64,000 nt of DNA, taken from contig OX597819.1 in the NCBI GenBank assembly GCA_951406725.2, positions 100,130,001 through 100,194,000 of the forward strand, read 5' to 3'. The stretch is from Octopus vulgaris. Its lineage: Eukaryota. Positions 9,224-55,276 of the stretch are shown one piece after another (the stretch's first letter is position 1; the number at the start of each line of letters is the position of its first letter). The translations under genes were made by a program, and so were the position numbers. The notes beneath the pieces were generated by a model, which did no database searches, was not told the DNA's origin, and saw only the letters and a list, made by a program, of their open reading frames with translations.

Positions 9224-9294
<71 letters not shown>

Positions 9295-9319
9295 TTTATT
9301 TTAAGCAGCAGAAAATTCA

Positions 9320-9371
9320 ACAAAATCTGTTACTCTGAGTTTCTCGTTGCCGTTCATCAGACAGTTTTTGC
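9320..9371 (-). ncRNA. Minimal type I hammerhead ribozyme motif (PLE-1, sense copy)
   Basis: Reverse complement reads CUGU-CUGAUGA-A-CG(GCAA)CG-A-GAAA-CUCAGAG-UA-ACAG. Confidence 0.8.
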
Positions 9372-10387
9372 TAGAATGGAACATATATATTAATTCAATC
9401 TATACTCTTACAAACGCTACACCTTTAAAAAGAAATGGACTTGTTTGATTGGCCCTTTAGAAAAAACGGTCAATCTTCGAGCGATAAACAAAAAGGTCAA
9501 AAATATATGTATATATATATAAAAACTTATAAAATTATAAAATCCGAGGAAAAAACCGAGGAAAAAACCTATTGCCGTTAATGAAGACAGTACAAATTAA
9601 TGCATAGAAATTAAACCTGCTATAAATACTGCAATACATATTTATATTAAAATCCACATATATATATCAACATACACAAAAGGATGCGCGTAAATGCCAT
9701 ACATACATATACAGACGTATGAATATGAATCTAAATTATACACATAAAAGCATGTGTACATATATTCACGCAAACCGTCTCGCACGCAAGCTAAAATTCA
9801 TCTATGTAGCAATTCTCATATACTGAGCAAGGAGGGGGAACGAAAGAAAGGGAAAGAGAGAAAAAAGAAACGAAGGAGGGGTGGGGAAAACTTGTAGCGA
9901 TATTATTGACATCTATAGAGGCCAGTATACATACACAAGTTCGAATTGATACATATACATACCGTCGTGTGTATGTGTGCTTAAGCACACGCATACTTTC
10001 ACTTACACATACACAGATACGCATGCTTACAAATATATATGCTTTGCTATATACAAACTTATATAAACATTCTAAATTTGACAACATTGCTTTTTTTAAA
10101 AAAAACATTGCTTTTAAAAAATGGGTGCATTAATAAAAATATATACGAAAGACATATAAAATAAAATATAACATCCTATTTTGGGTCATTTATAAATAAT
10201 CAAGGTAATATAAATAATCAAGGTAATCTTATGCAATACAATAACATGAAAACAAAGTTTGTAGGTTTTTCCTAATATATATGTAGAAACAATAAGACTT
10301 TGCTATAGTTCCGTCGTAGCGCTCAAGAGTCAAAATCAAAATCAAAAAATCAAAATACAAAATATATACTCTATCCATATGGTATAT

Positions 10388-11047
10388 TTATATTCGACAT
10401 TTAAATTTAGCCGTGTGCCTACATAAGTTCATTAATTCACTTCTTTGATTCAAAGAATTATTGTCTTTGAATAATATATGCATTTTTTCTAATAAGCAGA
10501 GCCTGCACTTGAAATTATATTTGTAAGCTCCATGCCTGTATGGTGCCGCCCTGTCCAGAATGCTCCATGTCACGTTGAAAGGTGGGGCTTCCTTTTCTTT
10601 TAGTTCCCAGACATATTTTGCTAGGCTGGTTTTCTTTCTGTTCTCTGGGTATTTAAAAGAATTCTTATGAGAATAAAATCTTGTTTTAAATGAATTTTCT
10701 GAAGCCCCTGTGTATGTCTTGTATTCCGATGAGCCTTCCACTTGCACCTTGGCTCTATAAACTACTCCTTTCACTAGACATTTCCCTTCTAACGGACAGG
10801 AGCTTTCGTTTTTGAAATTACATTTCTTAATGGGCTCGGCACCATGTCTAATCTCAATTAGCTTCCTATTATGTTGGCTAATGTAAGAGGCGAAATTTCT
10901 GCAACAAGAATAGCTAACCTTCAGGGTTCTTCTATTAAATATTCTGTAGAATTTATGACCCTGCCTAAAATGCTTAGAGACTAATCTCAAAAATTCTTTA
11001 CCTATATTAGTCTTTACGGCCAAATTGAAAGCCGGGTTGAACCACAA
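10388..11047 (-). pseudogene. PLE C-terminal linker plus GIY-YIG endonuclease (RT portion missing)
   Basis: WFNP, C..C-PLEGKC linker, GVVY...YTG, FKTRFYSH, CRLCLLEK, LNQRSE..CRH. Homologous to the C-terminus of 49323-50780. Confidence 0.9.
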
Positions 11048-12038
11048 AACTTTCCTGGAACTAGGACCAGGAAAGTTTTGACTCTTGAGCGCTACGACGG
11101 AACTATAGCAAAGTCTTATTGTTTCTACATATATATTAGGAAAAACCTACAAACTTTGTTTTCATGTTATTGTATTGCATAAGATTACCTTGATTATTTA
11201 TATTACCTTGATTATTTATAAATGACCCAAAATAGGATGTTATATTTTATTTTATATGTCTTTCGTATATATTTTTATTAATGCACCCATTTTTAAAAGC
11301 AATGTTTTTTTTAAAAAAAGCAATGTTGTCAAATTTAGAATGTTTATATAAGTTTGTATATAGCAAAGCATATATATTTGTAAGCATGCGTATCTGTGTA
11401 TGTGTAAGTGAAAGTATGCGTGTGCTTAAGCACACATACACACGACGGTATGTATATGTATCAATTCGAACTTGTGTATGTATACTGGCCTCTATAGATG
11501 TCAATAATATCGCTACAAGTTTTCCCCACCCCTCCTTCGTTTCTTTTTTCTCTCTTTCCCTTTCTTTCGTTCCCCCTCCTTGCTCAGTATATGAGAATTG
11601 CTACATAGATGAATTTTAGCTTGCGTGCGAGACGGTTTGCGTGAATATATGTACACATGCTTTTATGTGTATAATTTAGATTCATATTCATACGTCTGTA
11701 TATGTATGTATGGCGTTTACGCGCATCCTTTTGTGTATGTTGATATATATATGTGGATTTTAATATAAATATGTATTGCAGTATTTATAGCAGGTTTAAT
11801 TTCTATGCATTAATTTGTACTGTCTTCATTAACGGCAATAGGTTTTTTCCTCGGTTTTTTCCTCGGATTTTATAATTTTATAAGTTTTTATATATATATA
11901 CATATATTTTTGACCTTTTTGTTTATCGCTCGAAGATTGACCGTTTTTTCTAAAGGGCCAATCAAACAAGTCCATTTCTTTTTAAAGGTGTAGCGTTTGT
12001 AAGAGTATAGATTGAATTAATATATATGTTCCATTCTA

Positions 12039-12090
12039 GCAAAAACTGTCTGATGAACGGCAACGAGAAACTCAGAGTAACAGATTTTGT
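12039..12090 (+). ncRNA. Minimal type I hammerhead ribozyme motif (PLE-1, inverted copy)
   Basis: ctgt ctgatga a cggcaacg a gaaa ctcagag ta acag. Stem I ctgt/acag, GNRA-capped short stem II, palindromic stem III. Predicted cut after 12079. Confidence 0.8.
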
Positions 12091-12185
12091 TGAATTTTCT
12101 GCTGCTTAAAATAAAGCATATTACTCTACCACTGGTATTTGAGTACTCTTTTTTCCACCTTGTTTCACATTTATGTGTTTACTCC

Positions 12186-12540
<355 letters not shown>

Positions 12541-27257: not shown

Positions 27258-30165
<2,908 letters not shown>

Positions 30166-30744: not shown

Positions 30745-31443
30745 CACATGCGCAGTTAGTCGGTTGCTTCCTGTTGAGCTAGAGTGGACGTGAGTAACAA
30801 GCTCCTTCCAACTAAAGAAAAAAGACCAAAAACGGAAAGTTGTCGAGGTAAGTGATTTTGTTTATTGTGAGTTGGGCATAATTTATTGCGTGCCAATTAT
30901 TATTTCAGTAGGTTGTGTCCAACTCTGAGACAATTTCGCCTGCGCTAGGCGGCTGCCGTTTTTGTGTTCATTGAAAAAAAAAAAAAAAAAAAAACAGTGG
31001 AGGGGCGTATCCTCAGAATTCAATACAGTTACTGTTAAAATCACCGTTGGCGGTAGCCAGTGCTGTGTTTGGATTTGTTGAATTTATTCCCTTGTCAGAG
31101 TACTTCGCAAGAAAAGTATAAAAATAAGCCACTATTGGATTACCTTTCGGACCTTTTTTGTGGAGGTTGTGTTGCAGTTGCGGTGTTCCAGGTTCAACCC
31201 AGGCCGGGAGTACCGCAAGGCCAGAATATTTTTGCTGTGTTTTTTCTGTTTATTAACTTTCTTTTGAACTTCATTTACCCCCCCCCCCTTTTGTTTTTTC
31301 TTTATTGCGACTTTCCGTTAATTTCTTCCCTTCTGTTGTGCTTTCTCCTTTTTGTTTTTTCAAAAATCTATCAAATTTATTTAGACTTTTGAACTTTTTT
31401 CTTCCTGCTTTTGAGTCTAATTTGAATATATTTTTTAAAAAAC

Positions 31444-32688
31444 ATGGCAATGAAAAATAACAAAGTTTTGGAGTGGGAAATCATACCACCCAAAAAGTGG
31501 TTGAAGGACCGTGAAGATAGGACGGTGGTGTTGAGAACCTACTCCAAGGCACTTGACACCATCGCCCTATTCGAAAAGACGGCAATTGAGGAGGAGTTGG
31601 AGGAGTATTTGCCAACAATTAAATTCATTTCCAGGGGTGTCAAATATGGAACAGTGTGGTTGCTGTTTGACACCCCTGAAGAGGCTTGCAAATTTGCTAG
31701 CGAACCCTTGGAGGGTAAGGAAATCTTATTCCTGCCCACTTACAAAAAAAAGAAATTGATGAAAGCTTGGATCTGCGGACTGCCATCCGACATAGAACCC
31801 GAGTGGATAGAGGAGACTATCCGCCGGGGTCTGGGTGACAGCGAAACTAAGCTCCTCAATGTAAAAGTTCTTCCTGCGGCTGCTTGGGTTGGCTCGAAAG
31901 CAGTTTTGACCCTGTGGACCCAATCAGCCAATCTGGTTTTTCCAGATTTTTTGAAAATGGCCGGGTGCAGGTACCCGGTGATGCTTGAGGGTCGCCCCCC
32001 TAAGTGTCATCGGTGCTTGGAGTCCGGCCACATAAAGAAGAACTGTCCTCGGGAACAAAATAGGATCCCGGAACAGTTAAGTAAAACCCCTCTAGAAGAG
32101 GGAACGATAACGGCCGAGAAAGCAGAGGACTCCTCAAGCAGAGGCCGAAAGAGGAAGGTGAGCAACAATGGGTGCTCACCAAAGGATAATAGGGACGAGG
32201 AGAGGAGGGCGAATCTTCCAGCCACGGAGGAGACGCACCCTCCCTCAGTTGAAAAGGGAAAAAAAAAGAAAAAGAGGAAGAAAAAGGGGACGTTGCCGGC
32301 TGTCAGTGTGGCACCGGAATGTCGCGGAACTACGTCGGTTGGGGTTGTGCCACCGACAAGAGAAGGAATACCGTTGGCGGAAACTGTTCCGCCAACGAAA
32401 GAACTGAATGTATTGGTCCTCTTCTATAGAGGAGGAGAAATTGAAAAAGTGATGGAAGAGCACTACAAGGGAGCACCTTTAGCCTTCACACAGGACCCCG
32501 AATGGCCTCCGCAGGTAGCTGTGGAGGCCGTGGCGTTCGACGTGACGCTAGGGCTAAAGGAGCTCAATGAAGACTATAACTTGGTCCCGGGCGACGCGAA
32601 CTCGGAACTTGACTACGTTCTGAGGGAGGCGTGGTTGATGGTGGAGGGCGCGGGCACAAGCTATTTCGAGGACGATATGTATTATTAG
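31444..32688 (+). CDS. 414 aa Gag-like/ORF1 protein with CCHC zinc knuckle and basic tract
   Basis: Uninterrupted ATG ORF with CHRCLESGHIKKNC, an upstream ICGLP segment like L1/Tx1 ORF1 RRM regions, and KKKKKRKKK. Confidence 0.8.
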   Translation: MAMKNNKVLEWEIIPPKKWLKDREDRTVVLRTYSKALDTIALFEKTAIEEELEEYLPTIKFISRGVKYGTVWLLFDTPEEACKFASEPLEGKEILFLPTYKKKKLMKAWICGLPSDIEPEWIEETIRRGLGDSETKLLNVKVLPAAAWVGSKAVLTLWTQSANLVFPDFLKMAGCRYPVMLEGRPPKCHRCLESGHIKKNCPREQNRIPEQLSKTPLEEGTITAEKAEDSSSRGRKRKVSNNGCSPKDNRDEERRANLPATEETHPPSVEKGKKKKKRKKKGTLPAVSVAPECRGTTSVGVVPPTREGIPLAETVPPTKELNVLVLFYRGGEIEKVMEEHYKGAPLAFTQDPEWPPQVAVEAVAFDVTLGLKELNEDYNLVPGDANSELDYVLREAWLMVEGAGTSYFEDDMYY

Positions 32689-36544: not shown

Positions 36545-37435
36545 ATGTCCAGAACCTGGAAACGTGACGAACTGGCGTGGTTCCTGCGAGGATGGCAATG
36601 CGCTGACGGAGAAAATCCAAATAATATAATTACGGCCGCGCTGAAGAACAACGGATACAAAAGGACGTCAGCTCAAATAGAGCGGAAGAAGCAAGAATTT
36701 ATACGCTCCTACGCACTTGTCAGATCGCACATTAACACGCTGGATGCCATTTTTGACAGCGAAAAACGCGAACAAAGTAAAGATGGCAAGGATAGAGACG
36801 CGGGCGCTGATGAGGAGGGTCACCCCCACCTGGTAGACGCCCAGGAAGAAAACTCCTGTGAGAGGCCTGCCCGGAGATGAACCCAGGTGCGGATGCTCCT
36901 ACCAGCACCAAAAGCCATGGACATGGAGATGAAAAAACCAAAAAAGGAAGAAAAACTGAAGCTAAAACTCAGACAAAGCCAAGGGGCAAGGCAGCCAGGG
37001 ATAGAGGCAAACCTAACTATCCATATGCCAAAAAGGATGGAAACAAGCAGCGCACACGGGTATATAAGTTCTACCTGAAAGGTGCCTGCCGGCATGGAGA
37101 GGAAGGTGCAGGCTGCCGCTTTGCACATCCGGGACCCTGCCACAGAAACCAACCACCGAAAGGAAATGGGATGGACCACGCATCACCTGCCCCAAAACGG
37201 AGGTACGCAGATGTGGTGCGTGCCACAAACCACCAACGTGTTGTTGAAAGGGAAGCTGCTGAGCAGGAATCTTTTTTTGTGCATGGCACAAAAGATTGTA
37301 CAGCAACTAACCTGGCTCCATCAGGCTCAGGCTCGCAGATGGAATTGCCCACAGTTCACGAGACAGCCACAGCAGATGGACCCAGGGTGGACACCACCGG
37401 CAACAGCATACACCTCACCTCGATGCTCCTACTGA
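36545..37435 (+). pseudogene. LINE ORF1 (frameshifted): Myb/SANT-like N-terminus plus CCCH-like zinc finger
   Basis: RTWKRDELAWFLRGW..IITAALKNNGYKRTSAQIERK resembles a trihelix/Myb-like domain. YKFYLKGACRHGEEGAGCRFAHP is CCCH-like with the first Cys replaced. Confidence 0.6.
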
Positions 37436-40382
37436 ACATCAGAGGACTACTAACACACAGTAACAGGACAAAAGTCCCGTTCCTGAGAGACTTTGCCGCA
37501 TGCAATCAAGCCTTATGCATAGCACTCACAGAAACGCATCTGAAACCGGACATAGCAGATGCGGAATTACACATACCACAGTATGTTGTACTACGGACCG
37601 ACAGAAAAGAAAGGAGTCATGGAGGAGTTGCTATGTACATCCGTGGGGACCTCACACCCCAGGTCCTTTTGTCATACTCAAACTCGGTGTGTGACACACT
37701 AATTGTACACATAAGGCAACTTGATGTAGTTGTGTGTGCTACATATCGCCCTCCAGATGCCCCAAGTCATATGGGCAAGTTTGAGGACTGCCTTTTAAAA
37801 ATAGAAGAAGTTCTAATCACATTAGAACAACACATAAGTGTACTTCTTATGGGAGATTTCAATCTACCCAATGTCAGATGGCCCGAGGGCCTTCCTCTCT
37901 CAGGAATGACAAGATGTGAACGAGGACAGGCGAGGTCCCTCCTGAACCTCATCAACACCCTATACATGGAGCAAGTAATACTCCAACCAACCAGAGCAGG
38001 TAACACACTGGATCTCTGCTTCACAAATAATATGGATCTCATCCATAATGTGAAAGTGACACCGACACTACTCTCGGATCACAACATGGTAGAGCTGACC
38101 ATGTACGGGCCAAAAGAGAGCACGGACATGCAGCCTACAAGAAACCCTCAGAATCTTTCCAGCTTGAACTTCAATAAGGCAAACTGGAAACAAACTGAGA
38201 AAGAGATCCTCAAACAAAACTGACCTGAATGTCTCTCCTCGCCGGACATCGACATGATACTTCAACAATTCATGTCTGTAATGCAAGCCATATGCTACAA
38301 ATGTGTCCCAGAGAGAAAGGCCTCTGTACACAAGAACAAAATCCCCAGAGAGAGGAAAATTTTAATGAGACGGCGTACAAAAATTTCAAATCGCCTAAAC
38401 AAACAAATTGAAAGCAGTGAAAAGTCCCGCCTGAAAATAAAACTGTTGGAAATTGAAAATTGTCTGCAACTCTCCCATGAGAAGGAAAGAGCAGACAAAG
38501 AAGCCTGGCTATAGACAACATAAAAACTAACCCCAGAGCTTTCTACAGGTATGCCAAAGAAGCAGCTACGGTGCACTGTAGGATAGGGCCACTCCTTGAA
38601 AAGGATGGCACACTCACAGGAAAACCAATGAGGGTAAGTGAAATACTGAATGAACAATTCAAGAGTGTTTTCACTCCACCCCTTGGGCATTTCCAAATCA
38701 GCAATCCAACTGACTTCTTTACCACTGCAGATATAGAATCAGAAGCGGCGACGATAAATTACATCGATATAAAGGAAGACGATGTAATAAAGGCTATAGA
38801 TGAAATGAAAACAGACTCAGCTATTGGCCCCGATGGATTCCCGGCAATCCTCCTAAAAGTATGTAAGAGAGTCCTAGCAAGATCACTGCAGTTCCTCTTT
38901 CAGAGCTTCCTTGCAGCAGGCAAACTTCCAAGAAAACTGAAGGAAGGTAAAATATGCCCTATACATAAAGGAGGTAGCAGAGCGGAGGCCAAGAACTACA
39001 GACCTATCTCTCTGACCTCACACATCAGCAAGGTCATGGAACGAATAGTCAGAAGGAAACTAATCACCTTCCTTGAAGAAAATGACTTGCTGCCTGACAC
39101 CCAACATGGTTTCCGACCAGGAAGAAGCTGCTTAACTCAGCTCCTGCAGCACTATGACTGGGTGCTGAAACAACTGCTCAACCACTCAAATGTGGAAGTC
39201 ATTTATCTCGACTTCGCAAAGGCCTTCGATAAAGTCGATCATGGAATGATATGTCACAAGCTGCGTGATCTTGGCATAGTTGGAAAACTAGGAGAATGGC
39301 TTCATGACTTTCTGAAGAATAGAAGTCAGGTGGTAGCAGCCAATGAGGCCACTTCCATTAGCACGCAAATAGTGAGCGGTGTTCCGCAGGGCACTGTTTT
39401 GGGACCACTACTGTTCATAATGGCCCTCTCAGACATGCCCTCAGCCACGCAGAGAGCCACGATCACAAGTTATGCAGATGATACAAAAGTTTCACAGGCA
39501 ATACAGAACCCTGAAGACACTAAGCACCTGCAATGTGAGCTGGACGAAATATACAAGTGGGCTGAAAAGAATAGCATGCAGTTCAATGCTGAAAAGTTTC
39601 AAGCTTTATACTATCAGCATGCAAAACTGAATGCAATACCCAATGAATACACTGGACCCGGAGGGATTGCAATCCCAGAGGCACAATCAGTGCGTGACCT
39701 GGGTATTCACATGAGTGATGACGCGACCTTTCATGTACATGTTGCTAAACTGACAATGAAATGTAGACGGCTGGCTGGATGGATTCTTAGAACCGTTAGA
39801 ACAAGAGAACAAGAAACCATGATGGTCTTCTGGAAGACACTTGTCCTAAGCCACTTTGACTATTGCTCTCAGCTATGGTCACCATCCAGTGTCAAGTTGA
39901 TCACAGAAATTGAGGCGATCCAACGAAGCTACACGAAGAAGATAGCCTCTGTGAAGCATATGAGCTACTGGGAGAGACTCAAGAGATTAAAGCTCTATTC
40001 CCTGGAGCGTAGGCGAGAAAGATATGCCATAATATATATCTGGAAGATCCTGGAAGGTCTTGTCCCAGACTTTGGCATCGAGAGTCACACAAATGCCAGA
40101 ACCGGACGCCACTGCGTAGTACCAAGGACTCCAAATTTGCCATCAAGATGTAGGACAATATATTGTGATAGCCTGGGCTTCAGAGGCCCACGGCTCTTCA
40201 ATATCCTCCCGAAGAACCTGAGGGACCTGCATGGTGTAGATGCGGATGTCTTTAAAGTAAGACTGGATCTCTTCCTGTCAGGTGTCCCGGATGAACCAAC
40301 TTCACGGCAGGAGGTGCAGATGAGGGCAGCTGCATCGAACTCTCTCATGCATCAGATGGCGTTTGCTAAAAAGCATCCGTGA
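37339..40382 (+). pseudogene. LINE ORF2 (endonuclease and reverse transcriptase), one stop and one frameshift
   Basis: Pieces 36877-38223, 38254-38514 and 38571-40382 join into a canonical ORF2. Confidence 0.9.
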
Positions 40383-42670: not shown

Positions 42671-43779
42671 CATACATACATACATACATACATACATACA
42701 TACATACATACATACATGCATACATACATATAAGTATGCAGCCACTGAGACGAACGTACGCACTTACGTACGTAGATACACATACATACATATGTATGTA
42801 TATGTAGGTTTATATGCGTGTATAGTTGTTTGAATGTTTGAATTTTTGTATGTATGCATGAATGTATTTTGTTGATATGTGTGTATGCGGGTTTGTGCGT
42901 GTATATATATATCTTATATACACTTACATACACGCATGCATATCAAACAATGTTTACGAAAACACTCTAAGTAATATTAATGGATACACAACAAACCCCT
43001 ACACTTTCCTTACAAGGCTTACACGCAAACAAAAACAATATTATTACTCAGCGTGTGTTTAGTTACACTAATGTAAACACAAATACACACCTACACACGC
43101 ATTTTATGTGTAAGCCTGTGTATGGGTCTCTCTAAGTATTCGTATGTGTGTGTGTGTGTGTGTGTGTGGTGGAACGTGTAACCTTCCCACCATCTTGATT
43201 AGATTTCACTATGCACACTTAGACACTTAGATGTGGCAGGCCAACGTTACATATATTGAGGAAGGAAGATAAGACGAAAGCTTATCTCCCTGATCTTTCA
43301 TCGATGGATGTCAAAATATTTGTGCTGGATATAGGAGGGTGCTATTAAAACCTTGATATTCCCCTCACACATTTGGGATCAGATGAAAGTTTAGCTACGA
43401 ACGTAGGTGTTGAACTATATTCCTAAGTCTAGTTAAATGTTGAATTACGCATTCGATAATATATACTAGCTTTCGTCACGGCAAATTAATGTTAGCCACA
43501 CATTCCGTGTTAGCGTCGCCAAATAGTTGACGATAATTCGTTCCAATTCTAAGGCTCAAAAAAAAAATAAGAGTAAACTAAATTTTTTAAAGTCCAGTTT
43601 ACTTATTTGAAGTTCCTTTATTTTAGGCAACAGAGAAAATGCTGGAGTGTCGCATTCAGTGATGTATATCTATTATAATATGTTTTTTAAATGTTGCTGC
43701 TGTTAATTACACGATGTTAAAAATAATTCAGTAGATTTGTGTATTATATCGTTAAAAAATAATTTTAAAAACTGCCTTT

Positions 43780-44290
43780 AACCCTCCAACGCGGAGTACA
43801 GGCCACTTATAATTGAATTCCATGTCACATAATTTTTCGCTTCTGTACTTATACTCTGCCATGAATGTCCCCCTTTCTCTAGTTTCTTTTGTGTTGATCT
43901 ACGCCACGAGGTCTTAGGCCTACCTCTCCTTCTATATCCATCCGGATTCCACTGTAAAGCATTTTCGCTACATTTGGTGTGTCTTTTCTAATTGTGCTAC
44001 CAATCCACTTCCACTTTTTCTTAAATATTTGCTCCCTAATCGAAAGTTGATTTGTTCTTTGCCATAGCTCCATATTGCTTATGTGTTCGGGCCATCTAAT
44101 TTTAAGTATACTACGCAAGCATCTGTTGATGAATGATTGTATTTGCTTATTTGACTTAACTGTTGTTTGCCATGTCTCAGCCCCATACAATAACACCGCT
44201 TTTACGTTAGTGTTAAAACTTCTTAATTTGTTCTTTATTGAAAGTACACTTGCGCTCCATATTTTTTCAACCATTTCATATTTATTTTTC
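43780..44290 (-). mobile_element. RTE-clade LINE 3' fragment
   Basis: [46 protein letters not shown]. Confidence 0.85.
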
Positions 44291-45036
44291 AGGCATAACG
44301 TCTTTAAGACTATATTAACTTATATGTCCTTCATTTTTTGAAGACAAGATATACTCCAAAGAAGATTAGACTTGGTTTTCTTCTTGATTTAATGATTTTG
44401 TAGTTTCTTCTTGTCTGTCTCGACTTAGCAGAGATGAAGTTTGTTCCTGTCACCAATAGGCGTCACAGTATATTTCACCAAATTAAAAGGTTTGCTGAAA
44501 AGTACAATCCTATAATAAATGTGAAGAGTGAAAAGGAAATCAAGTTTTAGTCTTCTATAGTAATTTCATTTACGGTTTATATGATGCATATAGGAATATT
44601 AGAACTTAAATAAATAAAGAGAACTTAATAGGTCATCGACTGGTAGTTAGTTTAATGTATTACCCCAGGAACGATGGAAGTCAAAGAAAACTAAATACCG
44701 TACGATTATTGTATGTCCTGCTATCTATTCTGCTAATCTGCTTCTTAGCCAGTTGTATTCATACCATTATTTTTTTTTCATAATTACAAAGGTTGTAACA
44801 TCAAGATGTATTTATTACAGTTATATTTTTAAATAGAGAATTCCGAAAGGCTATGTAAATGGCGCTCTAAATCCTCCTCAACATCATCAGCATCATCAAG
44901 ATCATATACATCTCCATCTTCCTCATCATCATCGTCATCGTCAAAAACCACCACCACCACCGCCACCACCATTGCCGCCGCCGCCACCGCCACCACCATT
45001 GCCGCCGCCGCCGCCGCCGCACAAACCACCACCACC

Positions 45037-45067
<31 letters not shown>

Positions 45068-46013
45068 CATCCAACACCGTATACTGCAACAGCAGCTATA
45101 CTATAGATTCATAACATTTCCTATAACATGTTAATAACTCTGCGTTATATGAAATAATATTCATGAATGATGTAACAAAATTATGTACAAGACTTGCAAC
45201 AGGAACGGCAATATCAACAGCAACAACAACAACAATAACAAAACAACAACAACTATAGTTAGAATAGCCCTAGCGATAACAACATCAAGTTTAACACAAG
45301 AATAAATTTTTAAAAAGCACATAATAGAATAATACAAACAAATACAAGTACAACAACAAAAAACAACACTATCAGTCAATCACAAGAACATAACAACAGC
45401 TACAAGAACGACTGCAACTACAAGAACACCAATAATAGGGAAAATACCAACACTAACACTAATACCAAAAGGAATATAACAGCAATTCATATAGAACATG
45501 TGTTATCGCTATTTTATATCAAATGCTATAACCCTACTTCATTTTATGATGTAGTGAAACTCGTTACAACCTGCAGCTGCTCTCTTAACATAATCAATGG
45601 TCTTATCAAAACTCAAACATGCATTTTTCAAACACCATTTCTCCAAGAATTATGTAGCTATGGAGTACTTTTTTATTCTCTTGTTATGGTGGTGGGTACT
45701 GTTGTTCTTATCGCTGTAGTTTTCTTCATATTGTTGTTATTTAGTTCTTGTTGTACGATGATATTTTGCACTTGCTATTGTGATCTTATAGCTATTGGAT
45801 GATTGGGGCATCATATATGCATTCATACATACATGCATACATATATACATACATACATACATACATACATACATACATACATACATACATACATACATAC
45901 ATACATGCATACATATATACCTTCATGCATATATATATATATATATATATATACATACAGGCACGTGCATGCATACACAATTATAAAAACATTCATTCAC
46001 ATATGTACGTATA

Positions 46014-46044
<31 letters not shown>

Positions 46045-46142
46045 TGATAAAACGGTAAGATAACAAAAGAAAGAAAGAGACCTCAATATTATGTAAATAG
46101 AGGAAATTTATCTATACAATATGTTACATTACTCGGTAGTCA

Positions 46143-46205
46143 AGATAAAACTCTGAGTTTCAGATGCCGAAGTGGAAATCCACAACACCATCTCTTCGGT
46201 TATCT
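46143..46205 (-). ncRNA. Hammerhead-like motif, PLE-2 inverted copy
   Basis: Reverse complement of 50976-51038. Confidence 0.65.
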
Positions 46206-46400
46206 GGCTATTTGAAAACGTTATGAAAAAATACCGTTAAAAATGAAGGGAAATTACTCTGTTATAACTCTGCTTTGCCTGCGTACTTATACATCGCTCG
46301 CATTTTTCGTCATAAAAATTATATAAAAATACATAAAAAATATATAAAAATATATAAAAATATATAAAATCTTCTTGGGACATAACACAGAAAGCATGTT

Positions 46401-48390
46401 CTATCCGTTTTCTTTAGGGGACCAAAAACGTAACAGAAATTTAGTCACATGTGGGCATGATCCGAAAAGTTCTGTCCTTGTATTTAGACATGTGGTAGGG
46501 TCTAAGCTGCTTTTCCAGATAAGCCATCTCTCCATGTCGCATAAACCGCACCTTCCGCTGCCGTTAGTATAGGGCTTACATCTGGCCAAAATCTTCCATT
46601 GTATGTTATAATCGACACCTTTATCTCTTAAAGACCAAATATGATTGGATAATTGTGTCGCTTTTCTTTTGTTCCAGTGCCTAAAGCTCAAAGTGTGGTT
46701 ATTGAACCTGGCCTTGAAATTACCCTCTGTCAGGCCCACGTATTTCTTCGTCAAAACGGTGTCTTTAGTGGTTATAGAGTTTACGGTAGCCTCATATATG
46801 ATGGTCTTGGACATGCAAGCTCCATTTAGCGGGCACAATTCTTTATTCCTGCATGAACAGCTGTTTTCTTCTTGTGTTTTTTGTATGTTATGATTGATTA
46901 TGTTTTTAAAATTGGTAGTTGAACTAAAACTAATTTTTAAATTGTGTCTATTGAAGAGTTTCCTATAAGCATGGTTAACTGGAAAATGTCTATCTATCAG
47001 TGCTAGGAAATATTTACCTATATTGAAGGCCACCTCGGGTGAGTAAGGGGGCGTAAACCAGATGACCTTCCTATTTCTATTATTCCTTTTCCTTATTGTT
47101 GGGCTGGTGATAGGTGTATATTTTATTTTTCGCTAAAACCACTATCTTTTAAAGCTTTATTATAAACTGGGGCAACGCTATTGAAGATGTCCTCATTAGA
47201 TGAGAGGCTAGAAATCCTCTTACTAATATTTTTAACTAAATTTTTGAATACTATAGGGGGATGGCATGAACCTACATTAATATAACTTAGTCTATCATTG
47301 GGCTTCCTATAAGGCTTATAAATATTATTATTAAGATCTAAGGAAACGTCTAAGAAATTGACAACCGTCAGGTTAGTGTCTATAGTTATACTAAGTCCGA
47401 AGTGTTTCATTAACTGGATAATATCCTTCCTAAAACGATCTTGTGCTGGTCCATTTGTATTAGCTGTTAAGGCGAGGGCATCATCTTTGTAGATGGCGAA
47501 ATGTACGTTAGGGAATGTCTTACTGAAGGTATCTAGGAGAAAGAGTCCAATTAGATCACAGATGCCTGCCCCATCATATGAACCCATGCTCACATCGAAA
47601 GCGCCCTCCGTGTCGGTGTTTTTTACCCACTTTGCATTCTCACTGAAAAGTAATGTCTTTCTAGCATGGAAGATTATATCCTTATCATTGGTACTAATTT
47701 CTATGAAGTCACTAGCGAAGATTAGGGCTTTATCTAGCAGTTCTTTAGAGATAGAGGCATAAAAATCAACAATATCGAATTGTGTAAACCTCGCTTTTTT
47801 CTTATTCTTAATAGCTTTAAACCAGTCTACGACTTCTATACTATTGGACCATTGCACTAGCCTAGTATCGGTCTTAATTTTCGTATTTATTTTATCTAAA
47901 ATTTCTTTGCTAATAATCCCTAGTTCTGACTTGGCTGGGTTGATAAGCCTACATTTAGGATTGGAAAGGAAGTTTTCTTTGTGGTCTTTAATAGTAATAA
48001 AGGCCTCTTTTTGGGGAGGGTTTCTATTTTTTTATCTAATTTAAGTTTAGCGGCGATGACGCTAGCTTCTTTATTAATTTCGTTATATGTCTGTGCCCTA
48101 GCTTTAGTATAATTATTAATGATGCTGTTGTGTAAGAGTTGTGTGTATTTGCTGTTATCTACCAGGTATAAGTTCTTGGTTTTATCCGAAAAAAGTGCTT
48201 TTTTCTTGGAGCTTTTTATATGATCAATATCTTTCTTCAATTTATGTTGGAAATTGTTAAAAGACTTACGAAACTTTATTTTGCTCATGATCTTCAGCAG
48301 GTCCGCTTCGAAATCTTCCAAGCCTTTAATCCTAGGAGGGAATTTTTTGGATTTTATCCGATAGCAAATGTTTTCCTTGGTGTTCGCTTC
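46401..48390 (-). pseudogene. Inverted, 5'-truncated copy of the PLE-2 RT/GIY-YIG ORF
   Basis: ORFs 47920-48420, 47123-47857 and 46401-47033 translate identically to the plus copy. One extra frameshift near 47126. Confidence 0.9.
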
Positions 48391-48449
48391 AACCGAAGAG
48401 ATGGTGTTGTGGATTTCCACTTCGGCATCTGAAACTCAGAGTTTTATCT
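48391..48449 (+). ncRNA. Hammerhead-like motif lacking most of the 5' strand of stem I (at the inversion junction)
   Basis: aa ccgaaga gatg..catc t gaaa ctcagag tt ttatct starts exactly at the junction. Confidence 0.55.
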
Positions 48450-48654
48450 TGACTACCGAGTAATGTAACATATTGTATAGATAAATTTCCTCTATTTACA
48501 TAATATTGAGGTCTCTTTCTTTCTTTTGTTATCTTACCGTTTTATCAATAAATCACCTCCCGGACGACGTTATTCTCAACTAAGAGCTAATACGACCTTT
48601 TTGGGATTATCGCCTAACATCGGTTGAGGACTCTCACAAACAAAAGAATCTAAT

Positions 48655-50780
48655 ATGGACGCATATCACATAGATTATTCTATGAAAAATATACCGATCC
48701 CATCAAAGGATTTTTACTCTAAGAAACTTCTGCAAAAAATTACTGATGTAATTAAGCGTATGAGATGGAAGGCTTTCTTTTTTGACACAGAAGCGAACAC
48801 CAAGGAAAACATTTGCTATCGGATAAAATCCAAAAAATTCCCTCCTAGGATTAAAGGCTTGGAAGATTTCGAAGCGGACCTGCTGAAGATCATGAGCAAA
48901 ATAAAGTTTCGTAAGTCTTTTAACAATTTCCAACATAAATTGAAGAAAGATATTGATCATATAAAAAGCTCCAAGAAAAAAGCACTTTTTTCGGATAAAA
49001 CCAAGAACTTATACCTGGTAGATAACAGCAAATACACACAACTCTTACACAACAGCATCATTAATAATTATACTAAAGCTAGGGCACAGACATATAACGA
49101 AATTAATAAAGAAGCTAGCGTCATCGCCGCTAAACTTAAATTAGATAAAAAAATAGAAACCCTCCCCAAAAAGAGGCCTTTATTACTATTAAAGACCACA
49201 AAGAAAACTTCCTTTCCAATCCTAAATGTAGGCTTATCAACCCAGCCAAGTCAGAACTAGGGATTATTAGCAAAGAAATTTTAGATAAAATAAATACGAA
49301 AATTAAGACCGATACTAGGCTAGTGCAATGGTCCAATAGTATAGAAGTCGTAGACTGGTTTAAAGCTATTAAGAATAAGAAAAAAGCGAGGTTTACACAA
49401 TTCGATATTGTTGATTTTTATGCCTCTATCTCTAAAGAACTGCTAGATAAAGCCCTAATCTTCGCTAGTGACTTCATAGAAATTAGTACCAATGATAAGG
49501 ATATAATCTTCCATGCTAGAAAGACATTACTTTTCAGTGAGAATGCAAAGTGGGTAAAAAACACCGACACGGAGGGCGCTTTCGATGTGAGCATGGGTTC
49601 ATATGATGGGGCAGGCATCTGTGATCTAATTGGACTCTTTCTCCTAGATACCTTCAGTAAGACATTCCCTAACGTACATTTCGCCATCTACAAAGATGAT
49701 GCCCTCGCCTTAACAGCTAATACAAATGGACCAGCACAAGATCGTTTTAGGAAGGATATTATCCAGTTAATGAAACACTTCGGACTTAGTATAACTATAG
49801 ACACTAACCTGACGGTTGTCAATTTCTTAGACGTTTCCTTAGATCTTAATAATAATATTTATAAGCCTTATAGGAAGCCCAATGATAGACTAAGTTATAT
49901 TAATGTAGGTTCATGCCATCCCCCTATAGTATTCAAAAATTTAGTTAAAAATATTAGTAAGAGGATTTCTAGCCTCTCATCTAATGAGGACATCTTCAAT
50001 AGCGTTGCCCCAGTTTATAATAAAGCTTTAAAAGATAGTGGTTTTAGCGAAAAAATAAAATATACACCTATCACCAGCCCAACAATAAGGAAAAGGAATA
50101 ATAGAAATAGGAAGGTCATCTGGTTTACGCCCCCTTACTCACCCGAGGTGGCCTTCAATATAGGTAAATATTTCCTAGCACTGATAGATAGACATTTTCC
50201 AGTTAACCATGCTTATAGGAAACTCTTCAATAGACACAATTTAAAAATTAGTTTTAGTTCAACTACCAATTTTAAAAACATAATCAATCATAACATACAA
50301 AAAACACAAGAAGAAAACAGCTGTTCATGCAGGAATAAAGAATTGTGCCCGCTAAATGGAGCTTGCATGTCCAAGACCATCATATATGAGGCTACCGTAA
50401 ACTCTATAACCACTAAAGACACCGTTTTGACGAAGAAATACGTGGGCCTGACAGAGGGTAATTTCAAGGCCAGGTTCAATAACCACACTTTGAGCTTTAG
50501 GCACTGGAACAAAAGAAAAGCGACACAATTATCCAATCATATTTGGTCTTTAAGAGATAAAGGTGTCGATTATAACATACAATGGAAGATTTTGGCCAGA
50601 TGTAAGCCCTATACTAACGGCAGCGGAAGGTGCGGTTTATGCGACATGGAGAGATGGCTTATCTGGAAAAGCAGCTTAGACCCTACCACATGTCTAAATA
50701 CAAGGACAGAACTTTTCGGATCATGCCCACATGTGACTAAATTTCTGTTACGTTTTTGGTCCCCTAAAGAAAACGGATAG
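48655..50780 (+). CDS. PLE polyprotein: reverse transcriptase plus C-terminal GIY-YIG endonuclease (one frameshift near 49170)
   Basis: YSMKNIPIPS, KRMRWKA, FDIVDFYASI, SMGSYDG, YKDD, NFLDV, WFTPPYS, CSCR..CPLNGAC, IIY..YVG, CGLC, LNTRTE..CPH. Restoring one A gives KKEAFITIKDHKENF. Possibly Nematis-type (from memory, not tested). Confidence 0.9.
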
Positions 50781-50975
50781 AACATGCTTTCTGTGTTATG
50801 TCCCAAGAAGATTTTATATATTTTTATATATTTTTATATATTTTTTATGTATTTTTATATAATTTTTATGACGAAAAATGCGAGCGATGTATAAGTACGC
50901 AGGCAAAGCAGAGTTATAACAGAGTAATTTCCCTTCATTTTTAACGGTATTTTTTCATAACGTTTTCAAATAGCC

Positions 50976-51038
50976 AGATAACCGAAGAGATGGTGTTGTG
51001 GATTTCCACTTCGGCATCTGAAACTCAGAGTTTTATCT
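50976..51038 (+). ncRNA. Hammerhead-like motif (variant core CCGAAGA, extended stem II)
   Basis: agataa ccgaaga gatg-gtgtt-gtgga tt tccac-ttcgg-catc t gaaa ctcagag tt ttatct. Stem I is agataa/ttatct and stem III is the same as in PLE-1. Predicted cut after 51032. Confidence 0.65.
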
Positions 51039-51267
51039 TGACTACCGAGTAATGTAACATATTGTATAGATATATATATATATATATATATATAAATATA
51101 TACATGTATGTATGCATATATATCCACACAGTTGATAAACTGTACTACAGAGCATAAGGTTATTCACACACACACACCACACACGCACTCACACACATAC
51201 ATATATATATACATACATATATACATATATATACATATATATATACATATATACATGTTTATATACA

Positions 51268-51316
<49 letters not shown>

Positions 51317-51849
51317 GAATGTTGGTGGAGTAACTTTTAATGCTGAGTTTTGTTTTCTTTTTAAAGCTACACTTACATTTCTAAACTACATTTTTGCACT
51401 CGGCTTCAAACAATCCCATGAAAGAAATATATATAGCAAATTTATTTCGATTTCAACTCACGTTCAGTAAATACAGCGTTTTTAAGCAGAACTCAGCGTT
51501 CGAGTTGCAAACAATGTTCTTAGTGCCATGAATGTTTTTCTTACCTACTTGAGCTTCCCAATTATGTTGGAGTTCTAGAAGCACTTTAATGACAGACTAC
51601 AGAGGCCGTTGTGTTAGGGTTCAGTTCAGATTTTCTTCTCCATTCGTCAGGTTGGGCAGCTTTTGCCTCCCGTTTTCTGTTTGTTCCCCCTACTGTCACT
51701 CCCCACTGTTCTTTCAAGAATGGTCACTGCAATGCCTTAAAGCGTGTTAGCAGAAGATAAAGTTTTAGTTTTACGTTCTTCATCATTATAGAGGCGGTCA
51801 TTGTCAGGCTAGATAATTCTTGCGAACGTACACGTGTAAGACGTAGTCT

Positions 51850-52200
51850 GTATATGAAATGACTAAAAGGTTGAACCCGCGTATCCTTTCCGGTGCTGCT
51901 GTCCTTTATTTATTTTTTCGCTTCACTGTGAGGGTCCATACCTCGCATGCATACAGGAACATGCAAAGTACCTGTACACTCAAGTATCCGATCTCGTTCT
52001 TCAAATCAGTGCTTCAATCTATCCGTATGAGAGTAAATCTGGCGAATGCATTTAAAGTGTGTTCATTTGTGGCAACGATTTCTGGCCTTGATCCTATATT
52101 ATTACTCTCTCTAGATATTTCAACTGCTGCATCATCTGTATTGTTTGTCCTGAATCTCATTTCACTGTTTTATGACTTCAATGTTATTTCTCCTCTGTTT
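51850..52200 (-). mobile_element. Decayed RTE-like fragment
   Basis: Reverse translation gives SRPEIVA and FLYACEVWTLT. Confidence 0.6.
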
Positions 52201-52372
52201 TTGCTTTTTTTCTCCACCCATCTTTTTTTCTTTTACTTTTCAGACATTGCTTTTTCTCTCTCAAATTTCACAAGATTATCAAGGTGGCTAAATAAGCTAG
52301 TAAAATGTTTCATCTCGCTTCTTTTATATGCTGTAAAATTCAGCATCCTGAGATTAAGATCAACAGCAATGG

Positions 52373-52520
52373 CCGCACCCTTCGCACTCAACGTCAAAAC
52401 CAGAAGTAGAAAGATATACCTTAGGTTAGTTGACAAGCACTTCACACAGCCACGTATACGTACGATTGTTTAACAGACACAACAGGGTCTCTTTCAGCTA
52501 TGCAACAAGCGTTAAGAAAA
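52373..52520 (+). mobile_element. Short decayed PLE fragment
   Basis: PFALNVKT..YLRLVDKHF..LFNRHN resembles PAFNLAVKTNIGKEFLRLVSKHF..IFNRR of PLE-1. Confidence 0.6.
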
Positions 52521-54497
52521 TATTAGTGAAGAGCTCTAGACCACGCGCAGAGGCAAGATAATGATGTTGGGTTAAAAATGAGTGCTCAATGGGGCATCGA
52601 TACAACTGCAAAGCCATGGTCTATGAGGCTAAAGTGGTGCCAGGGAGGAATGGCAGCTGCAGCAGCGTTGGCAGCAGCAACAGAACCAACAGTAACACAA
52701 CGAAAACAGTAGCAACAGCAACGTAACCAACAACAACAGCAACGGAACCAAAAACACTTCCGCCAGTAACAGCAACAGCGACAACAGTCGTAGCAGATGC
52801 GGCGATAGTGGCGGTGGCTGTAGTGGCGAAGGCGCTGTAACACCACCAGCAGCGCATTAGGAAGTAGTGACTGTTACGGTTGCACAAGTGGAGCTACAAT
52901 AACAACAGCATCACCAACAGTGCGTCTGACCGTAGTATCAACAGCGGCAACTGTTGCCGCAAAAACAGCAACAACTGCGGCACTAGAATCCCGTCCAGCA
53001 AAAACAGCAACAACGGCAGCGATGCCTGCAGCAACAATAAAAGCAGTTGCTCCTGCAATGCACTGGTCAATAGCAACAGCAACGGCTGCGATAATGACAG
53101 CAACAACAGCTGCAACACCACCATTATAAGGACACAGACACGGAAATATTTGAGGCTACAGAGGGTCCTTTTTAAGCAATGATATAGCAATCACAAACCC
53201 TCTTTTTGGATACCAGAGAAGCGCAAACCTACATCCTAGGCCAGCTACATGTGGTGTTTAAAAGAGGAAGTATATTATACATAATAATTAAACGGAAGTT
53301 CTTAGAAAAACAGGGGCTGTAGTTCAACAGCATCAAACGATATAAACTTTGCTTGGCCGCAAGTGCAAGAATTATAAAAAAAACTAGCTTGTCTCGGGAA
53401 ACTTCTTAAACTAAAAAAAAATATTTTGTTGGTGGCCTCATCAGTGGAAATTCGTTTTAGGAACATGGAATTCCCGATTACCGACACAGGAAAAGTAATC
53501 GACTATACACTGAGCAATCTTTAGATGCAGCTGGAACCGATTTATTATAAGACAGTAGAAGTTCATTTCGGGATTCTTTGTTTACAACCATCACTGACCA
53601 AACGTTTTCCTCCCTCTAGTTGTAGACAAGTTAAGTGCCTCCGGCCAACGAGTCTAATCAGCACCGTGCATTCCTTAATCACTCCCTCTCTACTGGCAGG
53701 CAGCAACCTTTTTGTCACTATAAAACAAATTTCGCTATCACTACAAGTACTACTGTCTCTAATTACCTGTCGGGCAAACGAATAAATATATGTAAATAAT
53801 ATTTCTTCCTTCTTGGTGTTGATCATTCGATGTTCACTGGTTACTCTGACGTTGGCACAATAATTCACTTGCCCAAACTGAATTGCTGGAGACATTTCAT
53901 TTTTTCCAGAAAAATGTTTTCAAAAAGTTATAAAGGTTTAACGTTCGATCATTTTCACCCAGTCAGGAAACAGTATTTGGAAGCAGTGATTTTGTGCGTG
54001 ACTGAACATTTTGTCGTCAACATCCTGAAAATGCTTGCATTTTTTATATCTTCCGTGAATCTTGCACGGGTCCTGCATGCTACAGATTTATAATTTACTA
54101 ATAATAATATAATAGTAAACGGCGAAATTTTTTAGTTCTCTTCCTGACTATCTTTTGGGGATCTTTCATGTTTGGTTGCCTGCTCAATTTTCAGTTCGAA
54201 TTGATTTCATATTCAGTGTAATGATACACTTTTATAGGCTAATTAATCAAGTGAAAGTAATTTTCGCTATAAAACAATAAATAAAGACTTATTAGTAATT
54301 AAGGCTTGAAAATTTTGGTAAATTTAGTCAATCGTAAGCCACAGACATATTTATGGTTTTCTCTTTTAAATTAACATAAACATTTATTTACAGGTGAGAA
54401 AATTACCGAATACCTTTCGTGCTAAAAATTATAGCTAAAGAAGATTTATTTACATAAAAGAAAATTACCGGTGATGTAAAACGTTGTTTACAAACAT

Positions 54498-55276
54498 TCT
54501 TTTCTTCTCTAGGCACAAGGCCCGAAATTTTGCAGGAGGGGTCCACTCGATTAGATCGACCCCCAGTACGCAACTTGTACTTAATTTATCCACCCTGTAA
54601 GGATGAAAGGCAAAGTCGATCTCGGCGGAATTTGAAGCCAGAACGTAAAGAGAGACAATAATGATTCTCCCAATAATAATGAAGATGATGATGATGATGA
54701 TGATGAGGATGATGATGATGATTATTATAATTTCCCTGTCATTGGCTGAAAAAATCTGGGAATGGGTAAAATTGTTATAGAAAACACCACTACTTAAGTA
54801 CTTTTTATGTTACTTAGAGCGAAAATAAAAGAAAGTAGTGAACGGATGAGCCATGATAAGTATTCTTTTGTAGGAACAAGGCTCGAAGTTTCTGGTGAGG
54901 GGGCCATTCGATTAGATCGACCGCAGTACGCAACTGGTACTTAATTTATCTTCTCCGAAAGGCAAAGTCAGCCTCGGCGGAGTTTGAACTCAGAACGTAG
55001 ACAGAGGAAATACCTATTTCTATTTCTTTACTACCCACAAGGGGCTAAACACAGAGAGGACAAACAAGGACAGTCAGACAGATTAAGTCGATTATATCGA
55101 CCCAAGTACGTAACTGGTACTTATTTAATTGACCCCGAAAGGATGAAAAGCAAAGTCGACCTCGGTGGAATTTGAACTCAGATCGTAACGGCAGACGAAA
55201 TACCTATTTCTTTACTACCCACAAGGGGCTAAACACAGAGAGGACAAATAAGGACAGACAAACCGGATTAAGTCGA
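54498..55276 (-). mobile_element. SINE family B copies (54498-54655, and a multimeric copy at 54865-55276)
   Basis: Reverse-complement core with both tail modules repeated. Confidence 0.8.

Follow-up and report, generated by a model that had tools for sequence, protein, structure and literature searches.

The 64,000-nucleotide (nt) stretch of Octopus vulgaris DNA analysed here (contig OX597819.1, positions 100,130,001 to 100,194,000, hereafter the window, with coordinates counted from its first letter) contains at 46042-51072 what its sequence identifies as a real, young and defective insertion of a Penelope-like element (PLE) of the Hydra clade, placed in a (TA)n repeat and arranged in the inverted layout that is standard for such elements. 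The head-to-head structure is confirmed in the assembled sequence: two arms of the same element face each other, both outer ends adjoin (TA)n at places that recur as ends of the family elsewhere, and the same private variants occur in both arms. As to its origin, we lean towards target-primed reverse transcription from both of the cut strands, with the two resulting complementary DNAs (cDNAs) then being joined head to head.

The window has the composition of eukaryotic DNA, AT-rich and dense in microsatellites. When the reverse complement of 46109-48390 (2282 nt, the short arm) is aligned with 48790-51072 (2283 nt), there is not one substitution, and a single A is missing within an A run near 50051-50057. 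The 399 nt between them (48391-48789) are present in the long arm only, and include a pseudo-long terminal repeat (pseudo-LTR), a tail, the 5' untranslated region (UTR) and the first 45 codons of the open reading frame (ORF). The duplicated portion covers 1991 of the 2126 nt from the ATG at 48655 to the stop at 50780. An earlier reading of the letters alone (the original prediction) had described near-identical copies of almost the whole ORF lying head to head, and its coordinates all hold after recomputation of the arms, the spacer, the junction and a 67-nt extra on one side. The pseudo-LTR is the direct repeat of 48391-48483 at 50980-51072, giving a unit of 2589 nt, and the inverted arm extends 67 nt beyond it (46042-46108, equal to 48484-48550). 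No letters are shared across the junction 48390/48391, which lies, as had been noticed, 2 nt ahead of the hammerhead-like core sequence CCGAAGA at 48393. At each outer end about three letters are shared with the adjoining (TA)n, in which a target-site duplication is unreadable. The outer flanks (43000-46041 against 51073-54500) gave no minus-strand blastn match that would make them mirror images, with low-complexity filtering in use, and attempts to show that the two flanks form one interrupted sequence yielded nothing.

Contigs of four public runs (X1, X3, X14 and X20) were compared with a reference spanning 48391-50979, the results for loose ends and variants being drawn from 24 of 398 and 40 of 69 rows, respectively. 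Among the matches listed, (TA)n stands behind 48550 in three contigs of X20 and in one each of X14 and X1, and at the same place in contigs of a sister subfamily from X3, X20 and X14, while (TA)n behind 48483 was seen in one contig, from X20. Since both termini recur as (TA)n junctions, the 67-nt extra is, by its sequence, the tail known from PLEs, and both ends of the insertion appear to be 3' ends that the family uses elsewhere. TA microhomologies in the tail region are longer at 48506 than at 48550, the one used, so microhomology alone does not select this end. The original prediction had correctly seen the 67 nt and had called for another template switch or a longer initial cDNA; an extra switch becomes unnecessary if the left end was primed alone, because three runs also show (TA)n joined at 48550 and because the second inverted element of the window (described below) has a tail that occurs only once, leaving a fold-back no template for it. 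Separate priming of each end would be the simplest reading.

Variants in the same contigs bear on the age and source of the arms. The main contigs of X20, X14 and X1 have, at all their depth, one more base behind 49163; the frame of the family is therefore open and the frameshift found here private or rare. Among the matches listed, the window differs from X1 and X14 by five substitutions (48945, 49077, 50390, 50428 and 50711), and at 49220 the letter of X1 equals that of the window while X14 and X20 differ. Both arms carry the frameshift and all five private substitutions, and therefore go back to one source. This source was likely a minor copy, as contigs drop rare variants; at 48945, X3 has the letter of the window at small depth (about 27 of 1044). 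The frameshift and substitutions shared by the arms, and absent from the main contigs of X1 and X14, bear out the earlier view of a young insertion with arms of one origin. Its description as very recent is plausible at fewer than 6.6e-4 substitutions per site, a figure that assumes no conversion or polishing between the arms.

Polishing is one form of the possibility that the palindrome was made in the library or the assembly, either as a fold-back chimera or through equalisation of the arms in the consensus. Arms that differ by a homopolymer deletion only would fit with this, as would the fact that 48390/48391 is missing among the 13 joints listed from the public runs. The missing joint is uninformative, however, as the reference began at 48391 and the plain continuation from 50979 to 48391 is likewise unlisted. 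Moreover the outer flanks differ, the ends coincide with start sites that independent runs show for the family and that a chimera would miss, the same layout is found at 9289-12187, and X3 contains other opposite-strand joints, and we regard an artefact as very unlikely. Slightly less probable still is a history of two separate insertions, or of hairpin-type repair at a later time, in which gene conversion would have kept the arms similar. Conversion between the arms of a palindrome would also leave variants shared. The shared private variants nevertheless argue against two unrelated insertions, the junction is free of (TA)n and host DNA, and the limits of the duplication coincide with start sites of the element.

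The identity of the element follows from its coding region. The frame from 48655 to 50780 is broken once, in a C run near 49160-49163, and a search with its C-terminal frame, in which 8000 candidates were scored, gave 1016 protein matches at E ≤1e-20, the best of them with 53% identity. The ORF contains RWK at residue 37, DKT at residue 114 (replacing DKG) and YKDD, followed by the linker CxCX5C (CSCRNKELC) and the nuclease motifs CxxC (CGLC) and CxH (CPH). A GIY-YIG match in the C-terminal frame, at residues 428-457, is weak and misses the Pfam cut-off (E 0.015), neither PLE frame has a Pfam match at E 0.001, and of nine pattern matches in viral contigs none was confirmed. As the motifs, the unit size and the (TA)n target are features given for the Hydra clade by Craig et al. 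2021 (PMC8557442), the assignment to this clade is made on these sequence features. A first guess that this was a Naiad PLE was rejected, the Naiad nuclease being N-terminal and the GIY-YIG match here C-terminal. The family is young and widespread in public runs: 20 of the 24 listed, from 8 studies, hold at least half of its words, with no RNA run among those listed with family words.

A second Hydra-type family is represented at 9289-12187, with 36% identity to the main element in the nuclease region. Its layout is the same, with head-to-head arms of 1047 nt at 99.7% identity around a 740-nt spacer and (TA)n at the ends, and a 71-nt tail is found on the short arm only. No 14-mer of this tail occurs anywhere else in the window, and a fold-back along the first cDNA therefore could not have supplied it. 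At the junction of this element, 14 bp pair perfectly into a stem that closes a loop of 8 nt. The short arm shares the final five letters of this loop, and the structure may reflect a snap-back followed by a jump. The element also has a near-canonical hammerhead core (12050 and 9360) and a 3' UTR of 1 kb.

Both elements carry a hammerhead-like motif, judged here against the features described for PLE hammerheads (PMC4209133). A descriptor scan of the window gave four matches, all at the 3' ends of the two PLEs (50982, 46199, 12050 and 9360), compared with 0 in 500 shuffles of the unit and 0 in 40 shuffled windows; among 77 related loci (L001-L077, metagenome contigs from other hosts and possibly collapsed consensus sequences) it matched 55 on the sense strand and none on the antisense strand. 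The motif of the main element shares GAAA-CTCAGAG-T with the neighbouring element and several relatives, and is therefore very likely homologous to their hammerheads. It deviates, however, in three respects: core position 4 is a C, as in 0 of the 55 relatives, the stem II register has one base too many, and the triplet is GUU. Rfam gave no match over the whole window at gathering scores, and none of its 31 matches over 45900-51200 up to E 10 is a hammerhead. A sequence-only model built from 44 relatives, which carries no base pairs, missed the motif here and found only that of the neighbouring element, and stem I is absent from the predicted lowest-energy fold. The letters of X1 over 48391-48550 are identical to the window, so the deviant motif appears to be the family's own form. 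We therefore describe it as a predicted motif that is hammerhead-like but deviant.

Several further observations concern this region. In many of the Hydra-type relatives stem II is closed beside the core by U-U or another non-standard pair, and in many stem III is palindromic. A joint in X3 from 48447 back to 48391, with AT between and a depth of 931, gives a tandem of about 59 nt consisting of the motif alone, perhaps a retrozyme-like array. A pyrimidine tract with an AG (50949-50978) stops 2 nt short of the position that corresponds to the junction and is possibly a 3' splice site; in Penelope of D. virilis the 5' end of helix I marks the end of an intron (PMC4209133), and no splice joint was found among the joints listed from the contigs of the four public runs.

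The two-cDNA origin that we favour would proceed as follows. The nuclease would cut (TA)n on both strands. Of the two 3' ends, one would prime at the inner start site (51072) and copy 2682 nt to 48391, while the other would prime at the outer start site, at the end of the tail (46042), and copy to at least 48790. The free end of the longer cDNA then probably turned back over four bases (GAAG) and paired with the other cDNA at 48790-48793, which it would use as template, leaving host repair to finish the insertion. With both cDNAs copied from one frameshifted source, the protein was probably provided by an intact copy. Elements of this scheme have been described for the Poseidon PLE of Anolis, whose purified protein nicks and extends both target strands in vitro (PMC11167929); Frangieh et al. 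2024 further place two internal start sites on its RNA, the interval between them being the tail, and use a template RNA uncut by the ribozyme (PMC11167929).

The turning step is suggested by the junction itself, where the terminal CTTC of the short arm is complementary to GAAG at bases 5-8 of the long arm, a pairing with a chance of about 6%. Stems anchored in this way and of at least 4 bp occur at three of ten junctions (48390/48391 and those of loci L031 and L071) against about 6% by chance (P 0.016), in a test devised after seeing the data and including L076, a gapped match at 83%. An unanchored search for junction palindromes found at least 4 bp at 189 of 323 control positions and is thus uninformative. 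The stem supports a turn-and-jump step, and is as compatible with a landing on the same cDNA as with one on a second cDNA. In R2, snap-back of a cDNA onto an internal cDNA position is a described class of 5' junction (PMC11371274). The original prediction had the reverse transcriptase stall at the structured ribozyme and switch onto its own cDNA at 48790; with the R2 precedent the snap-back is plausible, while the stall as its trigger is unsupported.

The polarity of copying bears on this point. A reverse transcriptase moving along the RNA from 3' to 5' would meet stem I at about 48449, and the long arm ends 58 nt further on, at 48391, where all but 4 nt of stem I have been copied and both the predicted cut, at 48443/48444, and the core have been passed, the former intact. 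The junction thus lies on the far (5') side of the motif, and a structural stop at 48391 would not be expected. Nine other junctions were compared (one from the neighbouring element, two from X3 and six from related loci, excluding L076), and eight of them lie at least 120 nt away. The junction ends of the neighbouring element are 974 and 1698 nt from the core, those of the X3 opposite-strand joints (49852/50160 and 50497/50710, whose orientation is not certain) 272-1130 nt, and those of L010, L031 and L035 120-2302 nt, while in L014 and L034, where the motif was not detected, both ends fall within the ORF. Among the inverted pieces of the six related loci, four run to the edge of the contig. 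Given a junction beyond the predicted cut and core on the path of the enzyme, we consider a ribozyme stall itself very improbable, and the ribozyme-like motif likely had no part in placing the junction.

L071 is the only one of the nine with an end at the motif, and this end is on the 3' side: its long arm starts 5 nt behind the predicted cut, where an end due to stall or cleavage would be. At 124-281 this locus contains an internal inverted piece of 121 nt, which does not reach the 3' end and is joined to the pseudo-LTR through a junction stem of 5-6 bp, and it looks like the best example seen of the fold-back mechanism originally proposed. Motif-linked junctions may therefore exist, although 48390/48391 is on the wrong side of the motif to be one. 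Depth rises several-fold from 50914-50979 to 48391-48477 in X3, X20 and X1; this could mean that 5' ends cluster at the motif, and is explained equally by a sister subfamily with different upstream letters.

In its full form, the fold-back would have one cDNA run from 51072 to 48391, turn onto itself at 48790, copy back, and then enter the upstream pseudo-LTR to acquire the tail. It would place all private variants in both arms, it has the described R2 snap-back onto internal cDNA positions (PMC11371274) and the resemblance of L071 in its favour, and the tail is present in the same cDNA here (48484-48550). On the other hand, it has to invoke a further switch and a stop that coincides exactly with the family's outer start site, it cannot yield the tail of the neighbouring element, and in its stall-dependent form it fails on polarity and on eight of the nine other junctions. 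We consider it rather unlikely, though the strongest competitor to separate priming from two cut strands, against which several points also weigh. The both-strand result comes from another clade, Poseidon, and from in vitro reactions, and the available text of that study (PMC11167929) shows no joined head-to-head products. The private variants common to both arms are predicted equally by a fold-back, the inner start site (48483) is supported by one contig among the matches listed, the 4-bp stem at 48390/48391 is weak by itself, and L071 suggests that fold-back does occur in the Hydra clade.

Alternatively, a palindromic intermediate could have been formed before insertion, by self-priming and possibly on an antisense transcript, with the nuclease trimming its ends at staggered sites. 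This fits with the shared variants and the one-sided tail; GIY-YIG enzymes, however, are nucleases for which strand transfer is not known. Junction palindromes have been read as self-priming on an antisense template by Arkhipova et al. 2013 (PMC3846280), and Craig et al. 2021 attribute the tail to nuclease resolution of an intermediate (PMC8557442), but more recent biochemical work on target-primed reactions assigns the tail to two start sites of reverse transcription (PMC11167929). We judge such an intermediate unlikely.

Target priming from both strands has a more specific version, which we put forward tentatively and as more doubtful than the general scheme: two PLE enzymes acting as a pair would copy one and the same RNA molecule, each starting from a different cut strand and at a different one of the two start sites. 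The enzyme starting from the outer (tail) site would trail the other, leaving the tailed arm shorter. The tail is on the short arm in both elements of the window (2 of 2), and the arms of the main element have a private frameshift in common, while L010, with 93.5% identity between its arms, apparently has its tail on the long arm, contrary to this version. We did not find this model stated in the open literature, subscription papers aside. If true, a single reaction would account for three features of all nuclease-bearing PLEs, namely their inverted arms, their one-sided tails and the palindromes at their junctions.

The features of the insertion are collected in the table below. Elsewhere in the window are a long interspersed nuclear element at 36862-40382, with APE nuclease and reverse transcriptase in two frames, a further reverse transcriptase fragment at 27689-28405 on the minus strand, and an open frame of 420 codons at 31426-32688 with no Pfam match at E 0.001.

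Table. Annotated features of the inverted PLE insertion, in window coordinates.
Feature	Position	Strand	Description
67-nt tail of inverted copy	46042..46108	-	Ends at the outer 3' end of the family (equivalent of 48550), joined to (TA)n
Inverted 5'-truncated copy (short arm)	46109..48390	-	94% of the ORF, two frameshifts, 3' UTR, pseudo-LTR
Hammerhead-like motif, complete, inverted arm	46143..46205	-	From the descriptor scan
Head-to-head junction	48390..48391	.	4-bp stem CTTC/GAAG, 4-nt loop
Upstream pseudo-LTR	48391..48483	+	Cut within the 5' strand of stem I
Motif parts in upstream pseudo-LTR	CCGAAGA 48393-48399, GAAA 48431-48434, predicted cut 48443/48444	+	
Tail, internal copy	48484..48550	+	
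Spacer of long arm	48391..48789	+	399 nt
ORF, Hydra-type PLE: reverse transcriptase and C-terminal GIY-YIG nuclease	48655..50780	+	One-base frameshift
Direct copy of duplicated arm (long arm together with spacer)	48790..51072	+	
Hammerhead-like motif, complete	50976..51038	+	Stem I AGATAA/TTATCT, core CCGAAGA, GAAA-CTCAGAG-TT
Downstream pseudo-LTR	50980..51072	+	Ends at the inner 3' end of the family (equivalent of 48483), joined to (TA)n

The layout is already known, as it has been described in several PLEs. In a typical complex insertion the units form a partial tandem, a 5'-truncated copy in inverted orientation adjoins the upstream pseudo-LTR, and one of the ends carries a tail (PMC8557442). 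The same layout, with palindromes at the inverted junction, has been described in a rotifer (Arkhipova et al. 2013, PMC3846280), and Penelope insertions of flies are reported to contain long inverted repeats (PMC3681739). The layout of the present insertion matches these descriptions in all its features (PMC8557442, PMC3846280, PMC3681739), and it differs in degree only, in that the inverted arm includes nearly all of the ORF. It is thus ordinary in kind and would not surprise a PLE specialist. Inversions also arise in L1 by twin priming, in which both target strands prime cDNA; there the second primer starts inside the RNA, so that the duplication stays small and just one of the two ends is a 3' end. 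By contrast, both ends here are 3' ends and 2.28 kb are duplicated. Should this near-perfect inverted repeat of 2.3 kb be transcribed, it could yield double-stranded RNA, as has been reported from the inverted repeat of Penelope in flies (PMC3681739). Craig et al. 2021 name the origin of the inverted arms and tails of PLEs as unresolved (PMC8557442), and the insertion offers a clean test case for it, because the family is young and widespread and the two 3' ends are sharp.

Compared with the Hydra clade as described in PMC8557442, the element is alike in its unit of less than 3 kb, single ORF, C-terminal GIY-YIG domain and (TA)n target, in the motifs RWK, DKT, CxCX5C, CxxC and CxH, and in having a hammerhead-like motif in the pseudo-LTR. 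It is unlike it in that the protein search returned no close relative and in the non-canonical C of its motif, and its tail exceeds the 30-40 nt stated there for PLEs. With the Poseidon PLE of Anolis (PMC11167929) it shares an AT-rich target and two start sites that define the tail, although the clade differs and the available text on Poseidon does not explain an inverted arm by joining of cDNAs. With the snap-back 5' junctions of R2 (PMC11371274) it may share the step in which the 3' end of a cDNA primes on cDNA.

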